Source: Escherichia coli (GTDB lineage Bacteria; Pseudomonadota; Gammaproteobacteria; Enterobacterales; Enterobacteriaceae). Taken from it: a DNA stretch of 64,000 nt. The stretch lies in assembly GCF_003334385.1 (NCBI RefSeq), contig NZ_QOWN01000012.1; one strand, given 5' to 3'. How positions within the stretch are numbered: position 1 is the first letter of the stretch; the number at the start of each line of letters is the position of its first letter. The notes beneath the pieces are model-generated. The model saw nothing but the letters and a program-made list of their open reading frames with translations, was not told the origin of the DNA and made no database searches. A program made the position numbers and the translations under genes. Positions 11,903 through 64,000 of this stretch are shown here, one piece after another.

Positions 11903-14776
11903 ATGACACAGACGTTAAGCCAGCTTGAAAACAGCGGCGCTTTTATTGAACGCCATATCGGACCGGACGCCGCGCAACAGCAAGAAATGCTGAATGCCGT
12001 TGGTGCACAATCGTTAAACGCGCTGACCGGCCAGATTGTGCCGAAAGATATTCAACTTGCGACACCACCGCAGGTTGGCGCACCGGCGACCGAATACGCC
12101 GCACTGGCAGAACTCAAGGCTATTGCCAGTCGCAATAAACGCTTCACGTCTTACATCGGCATGGGTTACACCGCCGTGCAGCTACCGCCGGTTATCCTGC
12201 GTAACATGCTGGAAAATCCGGGCTGGTATACCGCGTACACTCCGTATCAACCTGAAGTCTCCCAGGGCCGCCTTGAAGCACTGCTCAACTTCCAGCAGGT
12301 AACGCTGGATTTGACTGGACTGGATATGGCCTCTGCTTCTCTTCTGGACGAGGCCACCGCTGCCGCCGAAGCAATGGCGATGGCGAAACGCGTCAGCAAA
12401 CTGAAAAATGCCAACCGCTTCTTCGTGGCTTCCGATGTGCATCCGCAAACGCTGGATGTGGTCCGTACTCGTGCCGAAACCTTTGGTTTTGAAGTGATTG
12501 TCGATGACGCGCAAAAAGTGCTCGACCATCAGGACGTCTTCGGCGTGCTGTTACAGCAGGTAGGCACTACCGGTGAAATTCACGACTACACTGCGCTTAT
12601 TAGCGAACTGAAATCACGCAAAATTGTGGTCAGCGTTGCCGCCGATATTATGGCGCTGGTGCTGTTAACTGCGCCGGGTAAACAGGGCGCGGATATTGTT
12701 TTTGGTTCGGCGCAACGCTTCGGCGTGCCGATGGGCTACGGTGGCCCACACGCGGCATTCTTTGCGGCGAAAGATGAATACAAACGCTCAATGCCGGGCC
12801 GTATTATCGGTGTATCGAAAGATGCAGCTGGCAATACCGCGCTGCGCATGGCGATGCAGACTCGCGAGCAACATATCCGCCGTGAGAAAGCGAACTCCAA
12901 CATTTGTACTTCCCAGGTACTGCTGGCAAACATCGCCAGCCTGTATGCCGTTTATCACGGCCCGGTTGGCCTGAAACGTATCGCTAACCGCATTCACCGT
13001 CTGACCGATATCCTGGCGGCGGGCCTGCAACAAAAAGGTCTGAAACTGCGCCATGCGCACTATTTCGACACCTTGTGTGTGGAAGTGGCCGACAAAGCGG
13101 GCGTACTGACGCGTGCCGAAGCGGCTGAAATCAACCTGCGTAGCGATATTCTGAACGCGGTTGGGATCACCCTTGATGAAACAACCACGCGTGAAAACGT
13201 AATGCAGCTTTTCAACGTGCTGCTGGGCGATAACCACGGCCTGGACATCGACACGCTGGACAAAGACGTGGCTCACGACAGCCGCTCTATCCAGCCTGCG
13301 ATGCTGCGCGACGACGAAATCCTCACCCATCCGGTGTTTAATCGCTACCACAGCGAAACCGAAATGATGCGCTATATGCACTCGCTGGAGCGTAAAGATC
13401 TGGCGCTGAATCAGGCGATGATCCCGCTGGGTTCCTGCACCATGAAACTGAACGCCGCCGCCGAGATGATCCCAATCACCTGGCCGGAATTTGCCGAACT
13501 GCACCCGTTCTGCCCGCCGGAGCAGGCCGAAGGTTATCAGCAGATGATTGCGCAGCTGGCTGACTGGCTGGTGAAACTGACCGGTTACGACGCCGTTTGT
13601 ATGCAGCCGAACTCTGGCGCACAGGGCGAATACGCGGGCCTGCTGGCGATTCGTCATTATCATGAAAGCCGCAACGAAGGGCATCGCGATATCTGCCTGA
13701 TCCCGGCTTCTGCGCACGGAACTAACCCCGCTTCTGCACATATGGCAGGAATGCAGGTGGTGGTTGTGGCGTGTGATAAAAACGGCAACATCGATCTGAC
13801 TGATCTGCGCGCGAAAGCGGAACAGGCGGGCGATAACCTCTCCTGTATCATGGTGACTTATCCTTCTACCCACGGCGTGTATGAAGAAACGATCCGTGAA
13901 GTGTGTGAAGTCGTGCATCAGTTCGGCGGTCAGGTTTACCTTGATGGCGCGAACATGAACGCCCAGGTTGGCATCACCTCGCCGGGCTTTATTGGTGCGG
14001 ACGTTTCACACCTTAACCTACATAAAACTTTCTGCATTCCGCACGGCGGTGGTGGTCCGGGTATGGGACCGATCGGCGTGAAAGCGCATTTGGCACCGTT
14101 TGTACCGGGTCATAGCGTGGTGCAAATCGAAGGCATGTTAACCCGTCAGGGCGCGGTTTCTGCGGCACCGTTCGGTAGCGCCTCTATCCTGCCAATCAGC
14201 TGGATGTACATCCGCATGATGGGCGCAGAAGGGCTGAAAAAAGCAAGCCAGGTGGCAATCCTCAACGCCAACTATATTGCCAGCCGCCTGCAGGATGCCT
14301 TCCCGGTGCTGTATACCGGTCGCGACGGTCGCGTGGCGCACGAATGTATTCTCGATATTCGCCCGCTGAAAGAAGAAACCGGCATCAGCGAGCTGGATAT
14401 TGCCAAGCGCCTGATCGACTACGGTTTCCACGCGCCGACGATGTCGTTCCCGGTGGCGGGTACGCTGATGGTTGAACCGACTGAATCTGAAAGCAAAGTG
14501 GAACTGGATCGCTTTATCGACGCGATGCTGGCTATCCGCGCAGAAATTGACCAGGTGAAAGCCGGTGTCTGGCCGCTGGAAGATAACCCGCTGGTGAACG
14601 CGCCGCACATTCAGAGCGAACTGGTCGCCGAGTGGGCGCATCCGTACAGCCGTGAAGTTGCGGTATTCCCGGCAGGTGTGGCAGACAAATACTGGCCGAC
14701 AGTGAAACGTCTGGATGATGTTTACGGCGACCGTAACCTGTTCTGCTCCTGCGTACCGATTAGCGAATACCAGTAA
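11903..14776 (+). CDS. gcvP: glycine dehydrogenase (decarboxylating), P protein (957 aa)
   Basis: 957-aa [25 protein letters not shown]. Recognised. Confidence 0.97.
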
Positions 14777-14798
14777 TTCACTGATTCGACTATTTTCT

Positions 14799-14820
14799 AA
14801 AGGCGCTTCGGCGCCTTTTT
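14799..14820 (+). terminator. intrinsic terminator of gcvTHP
   Basis: AAAGGCGC-TTCG-GCGCCTTTTT. Confidence 0.85.
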
Positions 14821-14854
14821 AGTCAGATGACAAAGTACAAAAGTGCTCAGACAG

Positions 14855-14957
14855 TCCCCTCGCCCCTTTGGGGAGAGGGTTAGGGTGAGGGGAACAGGCC
14901 GGCACTGGCGCGAATATTTACCCTCACCCCGGCCCTCTCCCTGAAAGGGCGAGGGGG
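14855..14957. repeat. pair of inverted GC-rich intergenic repeats (boxC-like)
   Basis: Left unit CCCCTCGCCCCTTTGGGGAGAGGGTTAGGGTGAGGGG. Right unit CCCTCACCCCGGCCCTCTCCCTGAAAGGGCGAGGGG. The two are imperfect reverse complements. Confidence 0.6.
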
Positions 14958-15042
14958 AAAAGCGTGCCAACATTGAAGATTGAGCCAGTTTGTTAGCAAT
15001 CTCAAAGATACGTCAACGAATTAATTTTTCTCGGAAAAACAA

Positions 15043-15786
15043 ATGGCTATAGCACTTGTGACTGGTGGCAGTCGCGGCATCGGGCGGGCAACTGCATTAC
15101 TGTTGGCGCAAGAAGGGTATACGGTGGCGGTTAATTATCAGCAAAACCTCCACGCGGCGCAGGAAGTGATGAACTTAATAACGCAAGCCGGTGGCAAAGC
15201 ATTCGTGCTCCAGGCGGATATCAGCGACGAAAACCAGGTCGTTGCGATGTTTACAGCAATCGATCAGCACGATGAACCGCTAGCAGCGCTGGTCAATAAC
15301 GCCGGGATCTTGTTTACCCAGTGCACCGTTGAAAACCTTACCGCAGAGCGAATCAACCGAGTACTTTCCACCAACGTGACGGGATATTTTCTCTGCTGCC
15401 GCGAGGCGGTAAAACGCATGGCGCTTAAAAATGGTGGCAGTGGCGGCGCTATCGTCAATGTCTCTTCGGTGGCCTCACGGTTGGGTTCGCCAGGGGAATA
15501 TGTTGATTACGCGGCATCGAAAGGGGCGATTGATACGTTAACCACCGGACTATCGCTGGAAGTCGCCGCGCAGGGGATCCGCGTTAACTGCGTGCGGCCA
15601 GGGTTTATTTATACCGAAATGCACGCCAGCGGCGGCGAGCCTGGACGCGTCGATCGCGTTAAGTCGAACATCCCCATGCAGCGTGGTGGACAGGCAGAAG
15701 AGGTCGCGCAGGCCATTGTCTGGCTACTAAGTGATAAAGCCTCTTACGTCACGGGAAGTTTTATCGATTTGGCGGGCGGGAAATAA
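15043..15786 (+). CDS. ygfF: short-chain dehydrogenase/reductase YgfF (247 aa)
   Basis: TGGSRGIGRA cofactor motif and the YAASKGA catalytic motif. Recognised as YgfF. Confidence 0.92.
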   Translation: MAIALVTGGSRGIGRATALLLAQEGYTVAVNYQQNLHAAQEVMNLITQAGGKAFVLQADISDENQVVAMFTAIDQHDEPLAALVNNAGILFTQCTVENLTAERINRVLSTNVTGYFLCCREAVKRMALKNGGSGGAIVNVSSVASRLGSPGEYVDYAASKGAIDTLTTGLSLEVAAQGIRVNCVRPGFIYTEMHASGGEPGRVDRVKSNIPMQRGGQAEEVAQAIVWLLSDKASYVTGSFIDLAGGK

Positions 15787-15803
15787 AACAGGGAAGTTGT
15801 CTG

Positions 15804-15831
15804 ACCGGATGCAACAAGTATTGCATCCGGT
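15804..15831. terminator. bidirectional terminator between convergent ygfF and bglA
   Basis: Perfect stem ACCGGATGCAA / TTGCATCCGGT. Confidence 0.7.
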
Positions 15832-15842
15832 ACTTCATCGAC

Positions 15843-17303
<1,461 letters not shown>

Positions 17304-17320
17304 TTACAGGAAATAGTACC

Positions 17321-17632
17321 ATGCAGCCAAACGACATCACTTTTTTTCAACGTTTCCAGGATGACATTCTGGCTGGGCGTAAAACCATCACCATCCGCGA
17401 CGAGTCTGAATCGCACTTCAAAACGGGTGATGTGCTTCGTGTCGGACGTTTTGAAGATGACGGTTATTTTTGCACGATTGAAGTCACCGCAACCTCAACC
17501 GTAACGCTGGATACGCTGACTGAAAAACATGCAGAGCAGGAAAATATGACCCTGACTGAACTGAAAAAAGTCATTGCTGACATCTATCCCGGTCAGACAC
17601 AATTTTATGTGATTGAATTTAAATGTCTTTAA
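17321..17632 (+). CDS. yqfB: ASCH-domain protein YqfB (103 aa)
   Basis: 103-aa [30 protein letters not shown]. Recognised. Confidence 0.9.
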
Positions 17633-17792
17633 ATTGAACTCACGCCTGTTAGTTGAAATTTCGCATTTAATTTCATGATTTTTAGGAGATTAGTCTCAAA
17701 TCAGAATTTATTTTAGCTAACAGGTGTTCACTGGAACTATTCTCAGTTACGCTGGAGAGGTATACATGTGCGTGTACGTTTCTCCGGAGTAA

Positions 17793-18455
<663 letters not shown>

Positions 18456-18464
18456 TGGGTATGC

Positions 18465-18645
18465 CTTTGTAGGCCTGATAAGACGCGCCAGCGTCGCATC
18501 AGGCATCGGAGCACAACTGCCGGATTCGGCGTGAACGCCTTATCCGATCTACGGGCCTCGTCCCTGTTGTGATAAAGGCATCAAATCCCAGACATGATAA
18601 GACGCGCCAGCGTCGCATCAGGCGATAAATGCCTGATGCGATAAA
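18465..18645. repeat. REP/BIME cluster (about four REP-like units)
   Basis: GATAAGACGCGCCAGCGTCGCATCAGGC occurs twice (18477.. and 18595..). Also present are TGCCGGATTCGGCGTGAACGCCTTATCCGATCTAC and GCCTGATGCGATAAAG. Confidence 0.85.
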
Positions 18646-18650
18646 GAGAT

Positions 18651-19631
18651 TTACTCTTCGAGCGAATACGGCAGCGGCTCGATATGCAATGTATTCGCAT
18701 CGTCGCGTACGCGGAAGATGCTATCCGGTTCCATATCGTTATTCATGACGACCTGTACCACGACCTGACCATCTTCCAGTTTTACCGCAGCCAGTACCGT
18801 ACCGGTACGACGCCAGTTCTCGCCCATTTTCAGCTCTAAGTCTTCACCAGCTTCCGGCAGTCGGCTGGCGCTACCTGCCAGCAACCAGAGCGCACGTTTA
18901 TTGGCACCACGGAATTTTGCTCGCGCCACCATCTCTTGTCCGGTATAACAGCCTTTCTTAAAGCTGATACCGCCCAGCGCCTGGAGATTGGTCGCCTGTG
19001 GGATAAACTGCCCGCTGTTGGCGGCATCAATCACCGGGAAACCCGCTTCAATGTTTAATGCCAGCCACTGTTGGCTATTGTTCAGTTCCGCTTCACCGCG
19101 CAGTTTATCGGTCAGCATATTAGCAGTAGCTTCATCGGTTACGATCAGGAAACGTTCTGCCGGGTGTTCAAACCATAGCAAAGTGGTCGCGCCTTCTTTG
19201 ACTACCTGTTTTTCTTTCGAAGGCAGTTCGCTAAAGAGATTTGCCAGCGCGGCGCGCGCCTGAAAACCGGCAACACCAAGCAGCACACGCTCGTCGTCTG
19301 GCGCGATGGTCACTTTAGAGAATACCGCATATTTTTTCAGTTCAGTCAGCTGCGGTTCACGCACGCTGCGCCGTTCAATCCATGCAAAGCCATCGCCGTC
19401 GCGGAACAGACGTAAATTGCTCCACATTTTACCTTTGGCGTCGCAATGGGCGGCGAGCAGGTGCTGATCTTCTGCCATCTGGCTGACATCTGCTGTCACC
19501 TGACCCTGCATATATTTTTCGCTGTCCGCGCCAGTAATGGTGGCAAGCGCCCAGTCATCAAGCGTCATCAGCGTCAGCGGTAAACGGGCAGAAGCCGTAG
19601 GCTGACGGGGAGGAAAAGGTGTAAAAGCCAT
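18651..19631 (-). CDS. ygfZ: folate-binding Fe-S cluster repair/tRNA-modification protein YgfZ (326 aa)
   Basis: 326-aa [47 protein letters not shown] with the KGCYTGQE motif. Confidence 0.95.
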
Positions 19632-19861
19632 AATAGAGTCCTGAGTTGCTTAACGGCGTATTAATGACTAATGGTAAAAGAGCTATGAGGCAATGCAAGT
19701 GCTTTCACTACGCGATCTGTGCCTTCTGCGAGGCGACTTCCAAAAAAATGAAGCCATTGAATTGTTGTGAATTAATTTCGCGATCGCGATGGTGTTTACT
19801 GATATTCCCGTAAAAGAAGGCGAAAAACACGTTACAATAGCCGGGTACTGGATTTTCGTGA

Positions 19862-22121: not shown

Positions 22122-22832
22122 ATGAAGAAAGGTTTTATGTTGTTTACTTTGTTAGCGGCGTTTTCAGGCTTTGCTCAGGCTGATGACGCGGCAATTCAAC
22201 AAACGTTAGCCAAAATGGGCATCAAAAGCAGCGATATTCAGCCCGCGCCTGTAGCTGGCATGAAGACAGTTCTGACTAACAGCGGCGTGTTGTACATCAC
22301 CGATGATGGTAAACATATCATTCAGGGGCCAATGTATGACGTTAGTGGCACGGCTCCGGTCAATGTCACCAATAAGATGCTGTTAAAGCAGTTGAATGCG
22401 CTTGAAAAAGAGATGATCGTTTATAAAGCGCCGCAGGAAAAACACGTCATCACCGTGTTTACTGATATTACCTGTGGCTACTGCCACAAACTGCATGAGC
22501 AAATGGCAGACTACAACGCGCTGGGGATCACCGTGCGTTATCTTGCTTTCCCGCGCCAGGGGCTGGACAGCGATGCAGAGAAAGAAATGAAAGCTATCTG
22601 GTGTGCGAAAGATAAAAACAAAGCGTTTGATGATGTGATGGCAGGTAAAAGCGTCGCACCAGCCAGTTGCGACGTGGATATTGCCGACCATTACGCACTT
22701 GGCGTCCAGCTTGGCGTTAGCGGTACTCCGGCAGTTGTGCTGAGCAATGGCACACTTGTTCCGGGTTACCAGCCGCCGAAAGAGATGAAAGAATTCCTCG
22801 ACGAACACCAAAAAATGACCAGCGGTAAATAA
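22122..22832 (+). CDS. dsbC: periplasmic disulfide isomerase DsbC (236 aa)
   Basis: Signal peptide plus the CGYC active site. Recognised. Confidence 0.96.
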   Translation: MKKGFMLFTLLAAFSGFAQADDAAIQQTLAKMGIKSSDIQPAPVAGMKTVLTNSGVLYITDDGKHIIQGPMYDVSGTAPVNVTNKMLLKQLNALEKEMIVYKAPQEKHVITVFTDITCGYCHKLHEQMADYNALGITVRYLAFPRQGLDSDAEKEMKAIWCAKDKNKAFDDVMAGKSVAPASCDVDIADHYALGVQLGVSGTPAVVLSNGTLVPGYQPPKEMKEFLDEHQKMTSGK

Positions 22833-22837
22833 TTCGC

Positions 22838-24571
22838 GTGAAACAACAGATACAACTTCGTCGCCGTGAAGTCGATGAAACGGCAGACTTGCCCGCTGAA
22901 TTGCCTCCCTTGCTGCGCCGTTTATACGCCAGCCGGGGAGTACGCAGTGCGCAAGAACTGGAACGCAGTGTTAAAGGTATGCTGCCCTGGCAGCAACTGA
23001 GCGGCGTCGAAAAGGCCGTTGAGATCCTTTACAACGCTTTTCGCGAAGGAACGCGGATTATTGTGGTCGGTGATTTCGACGCCGACGGCGCGACCAGCAC
23101 GGCTCTAAGCGTGCTGGCGATGCGCTCGCTTGGTTGCAGCAATATCGACTACCTGGTACCAAACCGTTTCGAAGACGGTTACGGCTTAAGCCCGGAAGTG
23201 GTCGATCAGGCCCATGCCCGTGGCGCGCAGTTAATTGTCACGGTGGATAACGGTATTTCCTCCCATGCGGGGGTTGAGCACGCTCGCTCGTTGGGCATCC
23301 CGGTTATTGTTACCGATCACCATTTGCCAGGCGACACATTACCCGCAGCGGAAGCGATCATTAACCCTAACTTGCGCGACTGTAATTTCCCGTCGAAATC
23401 ACTGGCAGGCGTGGGTGTGGCGTTTTATCTGATGCTGGCGCTGCGCACCTTTTTGCGCGATCAGGGCTGGTTTGATGAGCGTAACATCGCAATTCCTAAC
23501 CTGGCAGAACTGCTGGATCTGGTCGCGCTGGGGACAGTGGCGGACGTCGTGCCGCTGGACGCTAATAATCGCATTCTGACCTGGCAGGGGATGAGTCGCA
23601 TCCGAGCCGGAAAGTGCCGTCCGGGGATTAAAGCGCTGCTTGAAGTGGCAAACCGTGATGCACAAAAACTCGCCGCCAGCGATTTAGGTTTTGCGCTGGG
23701 GCCACGTCTCAATGCTGCCGGACGACTGGACGATATGTCCGTCGGTGTGGCGCTGTTGTTGTGCGACAACATCGGCGAAGCGCGCGTGCTGGCAAATGAA
23801 CTCGATGCGCTAAACCAGACGCGAAAAGAGATCGAACAAGGAATGCAAATTGAAGCCCTGACCCTGTGCGAGAAACTGGAGCGCAGCCGTGACACGCTAC
23901 CCGGCGGGCTGGCAATGTATCACCCCGAATGGCATCAGGGCGTTGTCGGTATTCTGGCTTCGCGCATCAAAGAGCGTTTTCACCGTCCGGTTATCGCGTT
24001 TGCGCCAGCAGGTGACGGTACGCTGAAAGGTTCCGGTCGCTCCATTCAGGGGCTGCATATGCGTGATGCGCTGGAGCGATTAGACACACTCTACCCTGGC
24101 ATGATGCTGAAGTTTGGCGGTCATGCGATGGCGGCGGGTTTGTCGCTGGAAGAGGATAAATTCAAACTCTTTCAACAACGGTTTGGCGAACTGGTTACTG
24201 AGTGGCTGGACCCTTCGCTATTGCAAGGCGAAGTGGTATCAGACGGTCCGTTAAGCCCGGCCGAAATGACCATGGAAGTGGCGCAGCTGCTGCGCGATGC
24301 TGGCCCGTGGGGGCAGATGTTCCCGGAGCCGCTGTTTGACGGTCATTTCCGTCTGCTGCAACAGCGGCTGGTGGGCGAACGTCATTTGAAGGTGATGGTC
24401 GAACCGGTCGGCGGCGGTCCACTGCTGGATGGTATTGCTTTTAATGTCGATACCGCCCTCTGGCCGGATAACGGCGTGCGCGAAGTGCAACTGGCTTATA
24501 AGCTCGATATCAACGAGTTTCGCGGCAACCGCAGCCTGCAAATTATCATCGACAATATCTGGCCAATTTAG
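22838..24571 (+). CDS. recJ: ssDNA-specific 5'-3' exonuclease RecJ (577 aa)
   Basis: GTG start. DHH motifs are present (VVGDFDADGATS, VTDHH). Recognised. Confidence 0.96.
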   Translation: MKQQIQLRRREVDETADLPAELPPLLRRLYASRGVRSAQELERSVKGMLPWQQLSGVEKAVEILYNAFREGTRIIVVGDFDADGATSTALSVLAMRSLGCSNIDYLVPNRFEDGYGLSPEVVDQAHARGAQLIVTVDNGISSHAGVEHARSLGIPVIVTDHHLPGDTLPAAEAIINPNLRDCNFPSKSLAGVGVAFYLMLALRTFLRDQGWFDERNIAIPNLAELLDLVALGTVADVVPLDANNRILTWQGMSRIRAGKCRPGIKALLEVANRDAQKLAASDLGFALGPRLNAAGRLDDMSVGVALLLCDNIGEARVLANELDALNQTRKEIEQGMQIEALTLCEKLERSRDTLPGGLAMYHPEWHQGVVGILASRIKERFHRPVIAFAPAGDGTLKGSGRSIQGLHMRDALERLDTLYPGMMLKFGGHAMAAGLSLEEDKFKLFQQRFGELVTEWLDPSLLQGEVVSDGPLSPAEMTMEVAQLLRDAGPWGQMFPEPLFDGHFRLLQQRLVGERHLKVMVEPVGGGPLLDGIAFNVDTALWPDNGVREVQLAYKLDINEFRGNRSLQIIIDNIWPI

Positions 24572-24661: not shown

Positions 24662-25760
24662 ATGTTTGAAATTAATCCGGTAAATAATCGCATTCAGGAC
24701 CTCACGGAACGCTCCGACGTTCTTAGGGGGTATCTTTGACTACGACGCCAAGAAAGAGCGTCTGGAAGAAGTAAACGCCGAGCTGGAACAGCCGGATGTC
24801 TGGAACGAACCCGAACGCGCACAGGCGCTGGGTAAAGAGCGTTCCTCCCTCGAAGCCGTTGTCGACACCCTCGACCAAATGAAACAGGGGCTGGAAGATG
24901 TTTCTGGTCTGCTGGAACTGGCTGTAGAAGCTGACGACGAAGAAACCTTTAACGAAGCCGTTGCTGAACTCGACGCCCTGGAAGAAAAACTGGCGCAGCT
25001 TGAGTTCCGCCGTATGTTCTCTGGCGAATATGACAGCGCCGACTGCTACCTCGATATTCAGGCGGGGTCTGGCGGTACGGAAGCACAGGACTGGGCGAGC
25101 ATGCTTGAGCGTATGTATCTGCGCTGGGCAGAATCGCGTGGTTTCAAAACTGAAATCATCGAAGAGTCGGAAGGTGAAGTGGCGGGTATTAAATCCGTGA
25201 CGATCAAAATCTCCGGCGATTACGCTTACGGCTGGCTGCGTACAGAAACCGGCGTTCACCGCCTGGTGCGTAAAAGCCCGTTTGACTCCGGCGGTCGTCG
25301 CCACACGTCGTTCAGCTCCGCGTTTGTTTATCCGGAAGTTGATGATGATATTGATATCGAAATCAACCCGGCGGATCTGCGCATTGACGTTTATCGCGCG
25401 TCCGGCGCGGGCGGTCAGCACGTTAACCGTACCGAATCTGCGGTGCGTATTACCCACATCCCGACCGGGATCGTGACCCAGTGCCAGAACGACCGTTCCC
25501 AGCACAAGAACAAAGATCAGGCCATGAAGCAGATGAAAGCGAAGCTTTATGAACTGGAGATGCAGAAGAAAAATGCCGAGAAACAGGCGATGGAAGATAA
25601 CAAATCCGACATCGGCTGGGGCAGCCAGATTCGTTCTTATGTCCTTGATGACTCCCGCATTAAAGATCTGCGCACCGGGGTAGAAACCCGCAACACGCAG
25701 GCCGTGCTGGACGGCAGCCTGGATCAATTTATCGAAGCAAGTTTGAAAGCAGGGTTATGA
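24662..25760 (+). CDS. prfB: peptide chain release factor 2; join(24662..24736,24738..25760) through a programmed +1 frameshift (365 aa)
   Basis: Frame 1 reads [25 protein letters not shown] then an in-frame TGA at 24737. The +1 frame continues [19 protein letters not shown]... into track ORF 24879..25760, which carries the SPF and GGQ motifs. Confidence 0.95.
24722..24740 (+). promoter_or_regulatory. prfB autoregulatory +1 frameshift site
   Basis: CTT AGG GGG TAT CTT TGA C: an internal SD-like AGGGGG, then 3 nt, then the slippery CTT followed by the poor-context stop TGA C. Confidence 0.95.
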
Positions 25761-25769
25761 GGAACCAAC

Positions 25770-27287
25770 ATGTCTGAACAACACGCACAGGGCGCTGACG
25801 CGGTAGTCGATCTTAACAATGAACTGAAAACGCGTCGTGAGAAGCTGGCGAACCTGCGCGAGCAGGGGATTGCCTTCCCGAACGATTTCCGTCGCGATCA
25901 TACCTCTGACCAATTGCACGCAGAATTCGACGGCAAAGAGAACGAAGAACTGGAAGCGCTGAACATCGAAGTCGCCGTTGCTGGCCGCATGATGACCCGT
26001 CGTATTATGGGTAAAGCGTCTTTCGTTACCCTGCAGGACGTTGGCGGTCGCATTCAGCTGTACGTTGCCCGTGACGATCTCCCGGAAGGCGTTTATAACG
26101 AGCAGTTCAAAAAATGGGACCTCGGCGACATCCTCGGCGCGAAAGGTAAGCTGTTCAAAACCAAAACCGGCGAACTGTCTATCCACTGCACCGAGTTGCG
26201 TCTGCTGACCAAAGCACTGCGTCCGCTGCCGGATAAATTCCACGGCTTGCAGGATCAGGAAGCGCGCTATCGTCAGCGTTATCTCGATCTCATCTCCAAC
26301 GATGAATCCCGCAACACCTTTAAAGTGCGCTCGCAGATCCTCTCTGGTATTCGCCAGTTCATGGTGAACCGCGGCTTTATGGAAGTTGAAACGCCGATGA
26401 TGCAGGTGATCCCTGGCGGTGCCGCTGCGCGTCCGTTTATCACCCACCATAACGCGCTGGATCTCGACATGTACCTGCGTATCGCGCCGGAACTGTACCT
26501 CAAGCGTCTGGTGGTTGGTGGCTTCGAGCGTGTATTCGAAATCAACCGTAACTTCCGTAACGAAGGTATTTCCGTACGTCATAACCCAGAGTTCACCATG
26601 ATGGAACTCTACATGGCTTACGCAGATTACAAAGATCTGATCGAGCTGACCGAATCGCTGTTCCGTACTCTGGCACAGGATATTCTCGGTAAGACGGAAG
26701 TGACCTACGGCGACGTGACGCTGGACTTCGGTAAACCGTTCGAAAAACTGACCATGCGTGAAGCGATCAAGAAATATCGCCCGGAAACCGACATGGCGGA
26801 TCTGGACAACTTCGACTCTGCGAAAGCAATTGCTGAATCTATCGGCATCCACGTTGAGAAGAGCTGGGGTCTGGGCCGTATCGTTACCGAGATCTTCGAA
26901 GAAGTGGCAGAAGCACATCTGATTCAGCCGACCTTCATTACTGAATATCCGGCAGAAGTTTCTCCGCTGGCGCGTCGTAACGACGTTAACCCGGAAATCA
27001 CAGACCGCTTTGAGTTCTTCATTGGTGGTCGTGAAATCGGTAACGGCTTTAGCGAGCTGAATGACGCGGAAGATCAGGCGCAACGCTTCCTGGATCAGGT
27101 TGCCGCGAAAGACGCAGGTGACGACGAAGCGATGTTCTACGATGAAGATTACGTCACCGCACTGGAACATGGCTTACCGCCGACAGCAGGTCTGGGAATT
27201 GGTATCGACCGTATGGTAATGCTGTTCACCAACAGCCATACCATCCGCGACGTTATTCTGTTCCCGGCGATGCGTCCGGTAAAATAA
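25770..27287 (+). CDS. lysS: lysyl-tRNA synthetase, constitutive (505 aa)
   Basis: 505-aa [36 protein letters not shown]. Recognised. Confidence 0.97.
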
Positions 27288-61661: not shown

Positions 61662-61689
61662 TTGCTAAGGAGAGCGTAAGGTTTATAAT
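61662..61689 (+). promoter_or_regulatory. sigma70 promoter of glyU
   Basis: TTGCTA, 16 nt spacer, TATAAT, ending 18 nt before the mature tRNA 5' end. Confidence 0.6.
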
Positions 61690-61706: not shown

Positions 61707-61780
61707 GCGGGCGTAGTTCAATGGTAGAACGAGAGCTTCCCAAGCTCTATACGAGGGTTCGATTCCCTTCGCCCGCTCCA
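61707..61780 (+). tRNA. glyU: tRNA-Gly (anticodon CCC)
   Basis: 74-nt sequence GCGGGCGTAGTTCAATGGTAGAACGAGAGCTTCCCAAGCTCTATACGAGGGTTCGATTCCCTTCGCCCGCTCCA. It folds as a cloverleaf by hand with anticodon loop TTCCCAA and an encoded CCA. Confidence 0.95.
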
Positions 61781-61914
61781 TGACCATTCTTAAAGTATCT
61801 CAACTTACTGAATCCTAAGGGATATGGCTTTAAGCCTTCCGATAGTTTTACTCACTGTAACCAACACTGTGACTAACTTTGTTGAAATTGTGAGCAGATC
61901 TAAGGTCTCAGTAC

Positions 61915-63522
61915 ATGCTCAATTCCAGAACTTATCTTTATCAGCGGAATGGCGTCTTCTATATCCGTCTTAGGATGAAGGCCGCTGGTCCCTTCCCGGC
62001 TTCGCTTCCACAACATAAACGTTATAAACTTACGTCAGTATCATTACGGACTAAGGACAGACGTACCGCTATGGCTCACTCTCGGCACATCAAGGCAGCT
62101 CTTAGGGCAATCCATGCAGACAGACCAGACACTTCCTATGAGGAAATGAGGGAACACCTTAGGGATATCGCTGAGTGGGAATTGTCTACCGGGCGTTCAG
62201 ACCTCTTTGAGTCGGACATGAGAGACCTGTATCGTGACCAGTACGGAGAACTCGGTGAGAACCTTACGGATGCCTTGGCGAGTGAACTGCTTAGTATTGA
62301 CCAGCATCGCTACATTCATGAGGCCTTGGGAGTACTTAAGGCGTGTATGAAGCGTATCGAAACGGGAGACAGTAAGCCTCTTATAGATTATGTCGATGGA
62401 TTTGATGATATTGATCGGTCGAATGGTAAGGCCCCTGCGTCCCAATCTGTAAGTACTCCAGAAGTTAAACCCGGTGTCACCGTAGAGAGCCTTTTTGAGC
62501 AATACGAAGCGGAGAATTCACAGAACTGGAAGCCTGCCACCTTAAGGGAAAACAAAGCGTCTCATACTGCGTTACTCGAAATCTTTGACCATCTGGGCCT
62601 TAATGATGATGCCAATGCGATAACACGTGCTGACATACTTAGTGTTCGTAATGTGCTCCAGCAGTTACCTAAGAATCGCAAGCAGCGTTTCAAGGATGCC
62701 ACGTTGATTGATCTTCTGAACCGTGAAGATAAGACCGATTGTCTGGATGTGGTTACTATCAATAATAAATATCTCATTAAGATGGCGGCTGTCTTCAAGT
62801 GGGCTGTACGTAATGACCTTATTAAAAAGAATATGACAGAAGGGCTGGAACTGAAGGCTCCCCAGCGTAAAGCCTCAGAGGCCCGTAATGCTTTCTCTAC
62901 GGAGCAGGTAAACCAACTATTGTCTGCCGCCCAAGTTTACTCACAGAGGCCTTCTGGTAAGCCCTATCACTATTACGTTACCGTTTTGGCTGCTATCACT
63001 GGAGCAAGACTTAATGAAGTAGCTCAGCTACAGGTCAAGGATGTCAGAGCCACAGAAGCCGGAACCGTTTATATCCATATCAATGAGGACGACAGTAGCT
63101 TACCCGGTAAGAGTATCAAGAACGCCCACAGTGATCGCTGTGTCCCACTGATCGATGGTGCCTATGGTTTTGTATTGGCGGATTTTATGAAGCTGGTAGA
63201 AGCCCGCAGAAGCGCTTTAGGTGATGATGCTATGGTGTTTGACGGTCTTCGTCTTATGAAGAATGGCTACGGTGAGCAAGTAAGCAAATGGTTTAACCGG
63301 ACGTTGTTACCGAAAGTTCTAACTGATCGTGACGGTATGGCATTCCATTCGTTCAGGCATACAGTTGCGACACAGTTAAAACAACATGGCGTCGAGTTGG
63401 CTTACGCTCAGGCGATCATGGGACATAGTTCAGGGTCTATTACATATGACCGTTACGCTAAAGAGGTTGAGGTGGATAGGTTGGTTAATGTGATGGTAGG
63501 TATTTATAAGGAGGTAAAGTAA
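61915..63522 (+). CDS. tyrosine-type site-specific integrase (535 aa)
   Basis: C-terminal catalytic signature: AITGARLNEVAQL (Arg), HSFRHTVATQL (HxxR) and MGHSSGSITYDRYAK (His/Tyr). The N-terminus YLYQRNGVFYIRLR resembles the DUF6538-type arm domain. Confidence 0.88.
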   Translation: MLNSRTYLYQRNGVFYIRLRMKAAGPFPASLPQHKRYKLTSVSLRTKDRRTAMAHSRHIKAALRAIHADRPDTSYEEMREHLRDIAEWELSTGRSDLFESDMRDLYRDQYGELGENLTDALASELLSIDQHRYIHEALGVLKACMKRIETGDSKPLIDYVDGFDDIDRSNGKAPASQSVSTPEVKPGVTVESLFEQYEAENSQNWKPATLRENKASHTALLEIFDHLGLNDDANAITRADILSVRNVLQQLPKNRKQRFKDATLIDLLNREDKTDCLDVVTINNKYLIKMAAVFKWAVRNDLIKKNMTEGLELKAPQRKASEARNAFSTEQVNQLLSAAQVYSQRPSGKPYHYYVTVLAAITGARLNEVAQLQVKDVRATEAGTVYIHINEDDSSLPGKSIKNAHSDRCVPLIDGAYGFVLADFMKLVEARRSALGDDAMVFDGLRLMKNGYGEQVSKWFNRTLLPKVLTDRDGMAFHSFRHTVATQLKQHGVELAYAQAIMGHSSGSITYDRYAKEVEVDRLVNVMVGIYKEVK

Positions 63523-63984
63523 ATGGCAATTCCATATGAACCAGCGGAGTTCAAGAAAGAAGCTTTTAACTGTCCGTACTGTCAGGCGTATGCTAAGCAA
63601 AAGTGGGACCAATTATTTCCTTACTATGATGAAATGGCTTTCCCTATGCATGTGTCACAATGTGAGCGCTGTGAGGAGTACTCATATTGGTTTGAGGAGT
63701 CCCTCCTAATTCCTGCATCTGCGAATGTTGAAATGCCGAACCCAGACATGCCGGAGGATTGTAAGTCCGACTACATGGAAGCCAGGAGCATCGTCAATCT
63801 GTCTCCTAAAGGGGCCGCTGCACTTCTCCGTCTATGTCTTCAGAAACTGATGGTCCACTTGGGCGAGCCGGGGAAAAACATTAACGACGACATTAAGTCT
63901 CTCGTGGAAAAAGGGTTACCTCCCATAAGCGCTAACTTAAGGGTTGAACCATCTGAAGAATGCGACGCCTCGGTGCCTCGTTAA
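63523..63984 (+). CDS. zinc-ribbon + DUF4145-like protein, apparently C-terminally truncated or disrupted (153 aa)
   Basis: The start abuts the integrase stop (TAAATG). CPYC(17-20)..CERC(47-50), followed by [49 protein letters not shown], which I recognise as the first half of the DUF4145 fold. The tail [19 protein letters not shown] is unrelated. Confidence 0.6.
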
Positions 63985-64000
63985 GACGATGCCTCGCGTT

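Follow-up and report, generated by a model that had tools for sequence, protein, structure and literature searches.

The DNA that we analysed, a stretch of 64,000 nucleotides from Escherichia coli (here called the window), follows the K-12 gene order xdhCBA-actS-glyU until the tRNA-Gly gene glyU. There this order stops and an integrase-bearing mobile element starts, as had already been noticed in a sequence-only reading of the same DNA. The question raised by this locus is what kind of element occupies glyU, how far it extends and what it carries. The sequence-only reading had expected an island of tens of kb, located in place of the ETT2 type III secretion remnant, with its cargo beyond the window and possibly with something undescribed starting here. 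Our results point to a different element. With a probability of roughly 85%, positions 61758 to 64000 are the left end of a small integrase-only islet in glyU, which carries the defence gene RAZR and is broken by IS186/IS421. The features of this region are collected in Table 1.

Table 1. Features at the glyU end of the window, with positions in the window.
Feature	Position	Strand	Basis
glyU promoter	61662-61689		consensus-like in promoter scan
glyU, tRNA-Gly(CCC)	61707-61780	+	ARAGORN; same gene annotated glyU in K-12
attL core, 23-nt 3' end of glyU, TTCGATTCCCTTCGCCCGCTCCA	61758-61780	+	repeated as attR in relatives
Islet-internal attL arm	61781-61914	+	candidate integrase core-flanking and arm-type sites, inferred
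CTTAAAG in attL arm	61789-61795	+
TGAATCC in attL arm	61809-61815
CTTAAAG in attL arm	61828-61834	-
Tandem TGTAACCAACACTGTGAC in attL arm	61856-61873
Tyrosine integrase, intact, 535 aa	61915-63522	+	ATG open reading frame; Pfam, PHROG, catalytic residues
RAZR/PD-T7-4 5' fragment, codons 1-134	63523-63924	+	identity to 209-aa H7 protein
IS186/IS421 (IS4 family) end, terminal 76-80 nt	63925-64000	- (inferred for transposase)	match to M217 element

The gap between the end of glyU and the start of the integrase gene was exactly 134 bp; both ARAGORN and the open reading frame agreed with the earlier description of a tRNA-Gly followed at this distance by a 535-aa tyrosine recombinase. In Pfam the Phage_integrase domain (PF00589) was matched at residues 328-516 with 65.2 bits against a cut-off of 27.1 (8e-18). 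DUF6538 (PF20172) was matched at residues 7-64 (2.3e-6) and covers the N-terminal YLYQRNGVFYIRLR arm that had been pointed out before. The match to the PHROG_1 integrase was 3.6e-46. The architecture is that of an N-terminal DUF6538 arm domain and a C-terminal Xer-like catalytic domain. The Arg..HxxR..His/Tyr pattern claimed earlier was located at R365 (in TGARLNE), H478-x-x-R481, H504 and Y511 or Y514. The HxxR and the second His aligned in BLASTP with H244, R247 and H270 of E. coli XerD, and the first Arg and the Tyr were assigned by motif alone. A P4-type integrase was ruled out, as the sequence-only reading had also stated, since only DUF6538 and Phage_integrase were found in Pfam, without Arm-DNA-bind_3 (PF13356) or Phage_int_M. 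In contrast, a neighbouring P4-like integrase in one of the relatives described below (L029) has PF13356 and PF22022. NCBIfam contained no curated family for the protein, every match being far under the cut-off; its best PDB relative, the Tn1549 Int, matched at approx. 1e-3 only, and no papers on DUF6538 were found in the literature. The exact integrase sequence was present in 418 blocks of the assembly collection, and the protein is identical to that of H7, the locus nearest to the window.

A drop in GC content and frequent rare codons had been noted before, and both were recovered by counting. The GC content of positions 61781-63924 was 46.3%, compared to 51.4% in the rest of the window, and a value as low occurred in just 5.4% of equal-sized windows. 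Per 1000 codons the integrase gene contained 14.9 AGG, 13.1 AGA and 33.6 CTT, whereas xdhA contained 0, 1.3 and 10.4, respectively; these three codons were several-fold commoner in the integrase gene than in xdhA and actS. The shift in composition of the islet is real but modest.

The next gene follows with zero spacing, as had been noted: the TAA of the integrase gene (63520-63522) abuts the ATG at 63523 (TAAATG), and an AGGAGG lies within the final integrase codons before this start. Amino acids 1-134 of this second open reading frame are exactly those of a 209-aa protein of H7, and the two diverge afterwards. The intact H7 allele matched PD-T7-4 in PADLOC, the search that had been proposed for the cargo, at E 2.9e-100 over 3-209 of 211 positions, and the PDB entry 9y9c (chain 9y9c_OA) at E 1e-102. 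Judged by sequence, the gene abutting the integrase is RAZR/PD-T7-4, an already characterised single-gene defence. PD-T7-4 was discovered in a functional selection by Vassallo et al. in 2022, and the same study already remarked that it is linked to an integrase (PMC9519451). It was later renamed RAZR, for ring-activated zinc-finger RNase (Nature 2026, PMC13017515). The expectation that something undescribed starts here was thus not borne out. Nor does all of the cargo lie beyond the window: its main gene starts inside, and the last 77-80 nt of the window belong to IS186/IS421 rather than to the islet.

According to the published work, RAZR consists of an N-terminal Cys4 zinc ribbon and a C-terminal DUF4145 domain, a divergent HEPN RNase in which R146 and H154 are essential (PMC13017515). 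Oligomers form around phage portal or Gp77 rings, and the activated protein cuts tRNA, rRNA and mRNA, leading to a translation stop and abortive infection; the zinc-finger domain sets the trigger specificity (PMC13017515). Phage-triggered RNase activity and abortive infection have been published for RAZR-Ec and RAZR-Kv only (PMC13017515). The intact H7-type allele resembles RAZR of E. coli UMB1727 in its Cys4 zinc ribbon, its conserved linker and its DUF4145/HEPN domain with the invariant Arg and His, with an HMM match over the full length, and in both cases the gene abuts or overlaps that of the integrase. The identity to RAZR-Ec was 73.5% overall, with only 38% in the zinc-finger domain and 88% in the remainder. 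The copy in the window differs further from RAZR-Ec in being cut by IS186 and lacking the active site.

The fragment in the window retains the Cys4 zinc ribbon, the linker and the beginning of the HEPN/DUF4145 domain. The ribbon residues C17, C20, C47 and C50, invariant in 16 homologues, were all present. The catalytic residues R144 and H152 (corresponding to R146 and H154 of RAZR-Ec) are likewise invariant in 16 RAZR homologues, but they are absent from the window copy, whose native sequence stops at residue 134, and equivalents were found in intact relatives only. The native sequence ends at CTCCC (63920-63924), after which the window diverges from H7 as CATAAGCGCTAACTTAAGGGTTG... Over 80 nt (63921-64000) the window was 100% identical to the end of an IS421-family transposase element in strain M217 (L003, 16756-16835). 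The first 25 nt of this end recur inverted at the other end of the M217 element. IS186 prefers targets made of a G-run and a C-run, and the native insertion target in RAZR, GGGTTACCTCCCC, fits this preference with a GGG-N6-CCCC-like site. The 153-aa open reading frame reported by the ORF finder is a fusion of RAZR and IS sequence. The RAZR::IS186 junction was absent from all 5,426 complete E. coli genomes, and the fusion had no record among the gene calls of the assemblies. RAZR is disrupted in this strain and predicted to be non-functional, because the insertion after codon 134 cuts off the HEPN active site. An IS-mediated deletion or rearrangement at the junction is also possible. The suggestion of accessory anti-phage cargo therefore held as far as the identity of the gene is concerned, but the gene is inactivated by the IS here.

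The extent of the element was seen in relatives. Over 11.9 kb the loci nearest to the window were H7/L031 with 5 mismatches, L034 with 6 and L026 with 9. In H7 the order is glyU, integrase, RAZR, a 234-aa gene, a 158-aa gene, attR, ygeQ and the ETT2 genes. A direct repeat of the glyU 3' end had been predicted as attR, and such a copy was found in relatives: in H7 all 23 nt are repeated perfectly 4,768 bp downstream of the first copy. The element is in this way bounded by perfect direct att repeats, of which the window carries attL. Ten contexts with the identical integrase were listed; the 209-aa RAZR came next in all ten, and attR was located at +4,768 bp in six. In K-12 the site is empty and glyU and ygeQ are spaced by 155 bp, the same spacing as between attR and ygeQ in H7. 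The stretch from attR to ygeQ was nearly whole in at least 3,672 genomes, and in the sampled ones it directly abuts tRNA-Gly. Because of the identical 155-bp spacing, and because the DNA flanking attR directly abuts tRNA-Gly elsewhere, we read the islet as 4,768 bp inserted precisely between glyU and ygeQ, by which ETT2 was not replaced. The earlier view that the element stands instead of ETT2 does not agree with the presence of ygeQ and ETT2 after attR in H7, nor does an island of tens of kb agree with the 4.8 kb observed in relatives.

glyU is the integration target of the islet, and motifs at the two islet ends suggest how the integrase may recognise it. The pattern TGTRACY-N4-YTGTRAC was restricted to the two islet ends within the 42-kb H7 locus, with 0.01 occurrences expected. 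It lies approx. 76 nt inside attL, as the tandem motif of Table 1, and approx. 65-77 nt inside attR. Tandem motifs of the TGTRACY type are kept at the same offsets in islets of E. coli, Klebsiella, Citrobacter and Buttiauxella, and the Morganella islet contains related copies. In addition, TTCTTAAAG...TGAATCC and GGATTCA...CTTTAAGAA form a symmetric frame flanking the att core. These end motifs are putative arm-type and core-flanking sites of a functional attP. The scan for promoters and terminators gave nothing above chance, the region upstream of the integrase included, with the glyU promoter as the sole exception.

The glyU occupancy across E. coli, a comparison also proposed earlier, showed the module at glyU in 134 of 5,426 complete genomes, mostly as a variant that is approx. 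85% identical in DNA. Among 22 RAZR loci from species representatives, a homologue of the 535-aa integrase was immediately upstream of RAZR in 12, and a tRNA-Gly(CCC) just upstream in 10, the latter from Klebsiella, Rouxiella, Edaphovirga, Citrobacter, Morganella, Buttiauxella and Enterobacter. Islets of 4.4-6.4 kb, bounded by repeated tRNA 3' ends, were found in other variants and genera. Integrase and RAZR were common to all nine islets compared, and the distal genes were mosaic. The third gene encodes a regulator of the Ant/Rha/KilA-N type whose form varies among the islets; its matches to PHROG anti-repressors ranged from 1e-8 to 5e-12, and other variants matched KilA-N or Rha. It is followed either by the 158-aa gene or by a DUF6971 gene together with a gene of approx. 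330-400 aa. The 158-aa, 375-aa and DUF6971 proteins had no matches in PADLOC, Pfam, NCBIfam or PHROGs. Two weak matches to distal cargo, Specificity_I (E 0.011) and EarA (E 0.08), were set aside as noise. The motif CTTAAAG was present in seven copies within the 310 bp after RAZR and was nearly confined to the islet in eight of nine loci. No primase or replication genes, AlpA, packaging, capsid-hijack, excisionase or transfer genes were recognised in the H7-type cargo by Pfam, NCBIfam, PHROGs or PADLOC.

Could a larger or composite island continue past the IS, so that the islet would be only the first of several elements arrayed in tandem at glyU? Some of the ten contexts with the identical integrase are built this way. 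In L028 a second DUF6538 integrase of 650 aa follows attR, and then a 764-aa AAA_13 protein that matched the candidate defence ATPase PDC-S06 of PADLOC at E 6e-168. In L029 attR is followed by a P4-like satellite (Arm-DNA-bind_3 integrase, AlpA, Bro-N, primase), and in L032 the genes after RAZR include one for a group II intron reverse transcriptase, attR not being found within the 10 kb read. Further elements in tandem in some genomes indicate that glyU is a re-used landing site. However, H7, the nearest locus, has ygeQ and ETT2 directly after attR, and neither of the also near L026 and L034, where IS copies split the islet and IS-linked rearrangements affect the ETT2 region, has a second integrase-bearing element. 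We consider a tandem array in this strain unlikely; it would supplement the reading as a RAZR islet and not displace it. Much less probable still is a decayed remnant that has ceased to be a discrete element, in which a larger prophage or island would have shrunk to a lone integrase and pieces of genes. Decay would be in keeping with the content of just four genes, with the lack of recognised excisionase, replication or transfer genes and with the further IS damage in this strain. On the other hand, many assemblies share the same intact integrase reading frame, the att repeats match perfectly over 23 nt, and the compact architecture with arm motifs at both ends recurs at the same tRNA in at least eight genera, with integrases of other genera being 70-86% identical. 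From the intact integrase, the perfect att sites, the recurrent architecture and this degree of identity we concluded that the islet is a discrete element which spreads horizontally, and a lone integrase remnant was rejected on the intact att sites and the conserved architecture.

The content of the islet also brings to mind a minimalist phage satellite, in which the Ant/Rha/KilA-N-like protein and the CTTAAAG region would sense or exploit a helper phage for induction and transfer, and the role of RAZR would be to fend off competing phages. The third gene encodes a phage-type regulator in every case, the CTTAAAG repeats cluster after RAZR and hardly occur outside the islets in the loci mentioned above, and, as suggested by Hochhauser et al., defence islands with only an integrase may be satellites that are not yet characterised (PMC10121019). 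Yet genes for a primase or replicase, AlpA, packaging or capsid redirection were not recognised in the H7-type islet, and the CTTAAAG cluster could be an operator or a set of integrase/IHF sites, so that we regard such a satellite as very improbable. Related to this is a broader proposal, that the glyU integrase-RAZR islets are a distinct, undescribed helper-dependent family which would use the Ant/KilA-N gene and CTTAAAG for induction and transfer, and whose mosaic distal genes would include new defence or counter-defence genes. This we put forward as a speculation with a low chance of being correct.

Integrase-only defence islands that are mobile by unknown means were described by Hochhauser et al. 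in 2023 (PMC10121019), and the glyU islet is like these in consisting of an integrase and a defence gene without other recognisable mobility genes, and in being located at a tRNA in a minority of strains. It differs from them in its unusually small size and in an integrase-RAZR core that is fixed across genera. glyU is not mentioned in the main text of that study (PMC10121019), and no literature tying glyU, an integrase and defence together was found. With P4-like satellites, one of which sits in tandem at glyU in L029, the islet shares integration at a tRNA 3' end, direct-repeat att sites and defence genes. Unlike these satellites it has an integrase with DUF6538, without Arm-DNA-bind_3 or Phage_int_M, and it has no AlpA, primase, Psu/Delta or Sid-type genes. 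ETT2 uses the same 3' flank of glyU, and close relatives still have it beyond attR; it is a separate, older island, and the islet is an insertion between glyU and ygeQ.

For the RAZR islet we propose the following course of events. The element would have inserted into the 3' end of glyU by site-specific recombination, with its own 23-nt core regenerating the tRNA. The 535-aa tyrosine recombinase would be the integrase of the islet and may bind the tandem arm sites of the TGTAACC type that are conserved close to either end. Integrase and RAZR are probably co-transcribed. By analogy to the characterised proteins, an intact RAZR would polymerise on phage portal or Gp77 rings, cleave RNA and abort the infection. 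In this strain IS186/IS421 has inserted after codon 134 of RAZR and has inactivated the defence gene. Past the IS, the order in relatives predicts the 3' end of RAZR, the gene of the Ant/Rha-like regulator, the 158-aa gene and attR; attR would then be followed by ygeQ and ETT2, or else by another element in tandem.

The visible flank of glyU hides no undescribed system; it consists of a known defence gene in a known type of islet, knocked out by an IS. A routine run of PADLOC would suffice to label the parts of the islet, which are already known. The insertion of IS186 is a natural knockout of an abortive-infection gene and fits the view that such genes are dispensable or costly. The strongly divergent specificity domain of this RAZR allele could be tested for a different phage range, and the 4.4-6.4-kb glyU islets, which are well delimited and have conserved arm motifs, could serve as a model for how integrase-only islands move.

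The heptamer CTTAAAG was concentrated in the glyU islet, the small mobile element carrying an integrase and the RAZR (PD-T7-4) defence gene. In the 42-kb locus of E. coli H7, 11 of the 16 copies fell inside the 4.8-kb islet, and seven were found within 310 bp 3' of RAZR; about six copies would be expected for the whole locus. The att core, the glyU 3'-end repeat, had one copy on either side. The enrichment was seen in 8/9 islets of different genera, the exception being that of Morganella. Upstream of glyU a near-consensus sigma-70 promoter-like site (10/12) was detected, which presumably is the promoter of the tRNA gene; between glyU and the integrase start in the window no comparable promoter-like site was found.

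The commonest distal cargo was a conserved gene pair, present in five of nine islets and encoding a DUF6971 protein (approx. 136–180 aa) and a second protein of approx. 330–400 aa, for which no family match was obtained. A homologue of the 158-aa protein encoded before attR in the H7-type islet was found in the Morganella islet only.

Insertion sequences have struck the glyU islet repeatedly, and in O103:H2 the right-arm TGTAACC sites were replaced by an IS3-family element. Other elements re-use the glyU attR in tandem, one in L028 and a P4-like satellite in L029; the 764-aa AAA_13 protein encoded by the former matched the PADLOC candidate PDC-S06 (E 6e-168).

Coordinates of features in the window and in compared loci
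Feature	Locus	Position	Remarks
Promoter-like site	window	61662-61689	TTGCTA-16-TATAAT, just 5' of glyU
CTTAAAG copies	window	61789-61795; 61828-61834	
IS186	window	63925-64000	within RAZR
CTTAAAG cluster	L001 (H7)	22651-22962	intergenic, after RAZR
IS3-family element	L002 (O103:H2 12009)	13439-14652	adjoins attR
Another IS3-family element	L026/L030/L034	12627-13855	separates RAZR from Ant-like gene (three genomes)
Distal pair	L003	13506-15138	also in L004, L008, L013, L015
Tandem element	L028 (E. coli SY3626)	14724-19778	650-aa DUF6538-type integrase, then AAA_13 protein
P4-like satellite	L029	14799-21608	integrase, AlpA, Bro-N, primase
ygeQ region	L001 (H7)	25105-26715	compared with L002
ygeQ region	L002 (O103:H2)	15023-16633	compared with L001

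In H7, where it lies to the right of attR, and in K-12, ygeQ was a 264-aa ORF. The K-12-type ygeQ looks like a truncated form, because in O103:H2 and many other strains it is part of a 536-aa ORF annotated as 'glycoside hydrolase family 15'.
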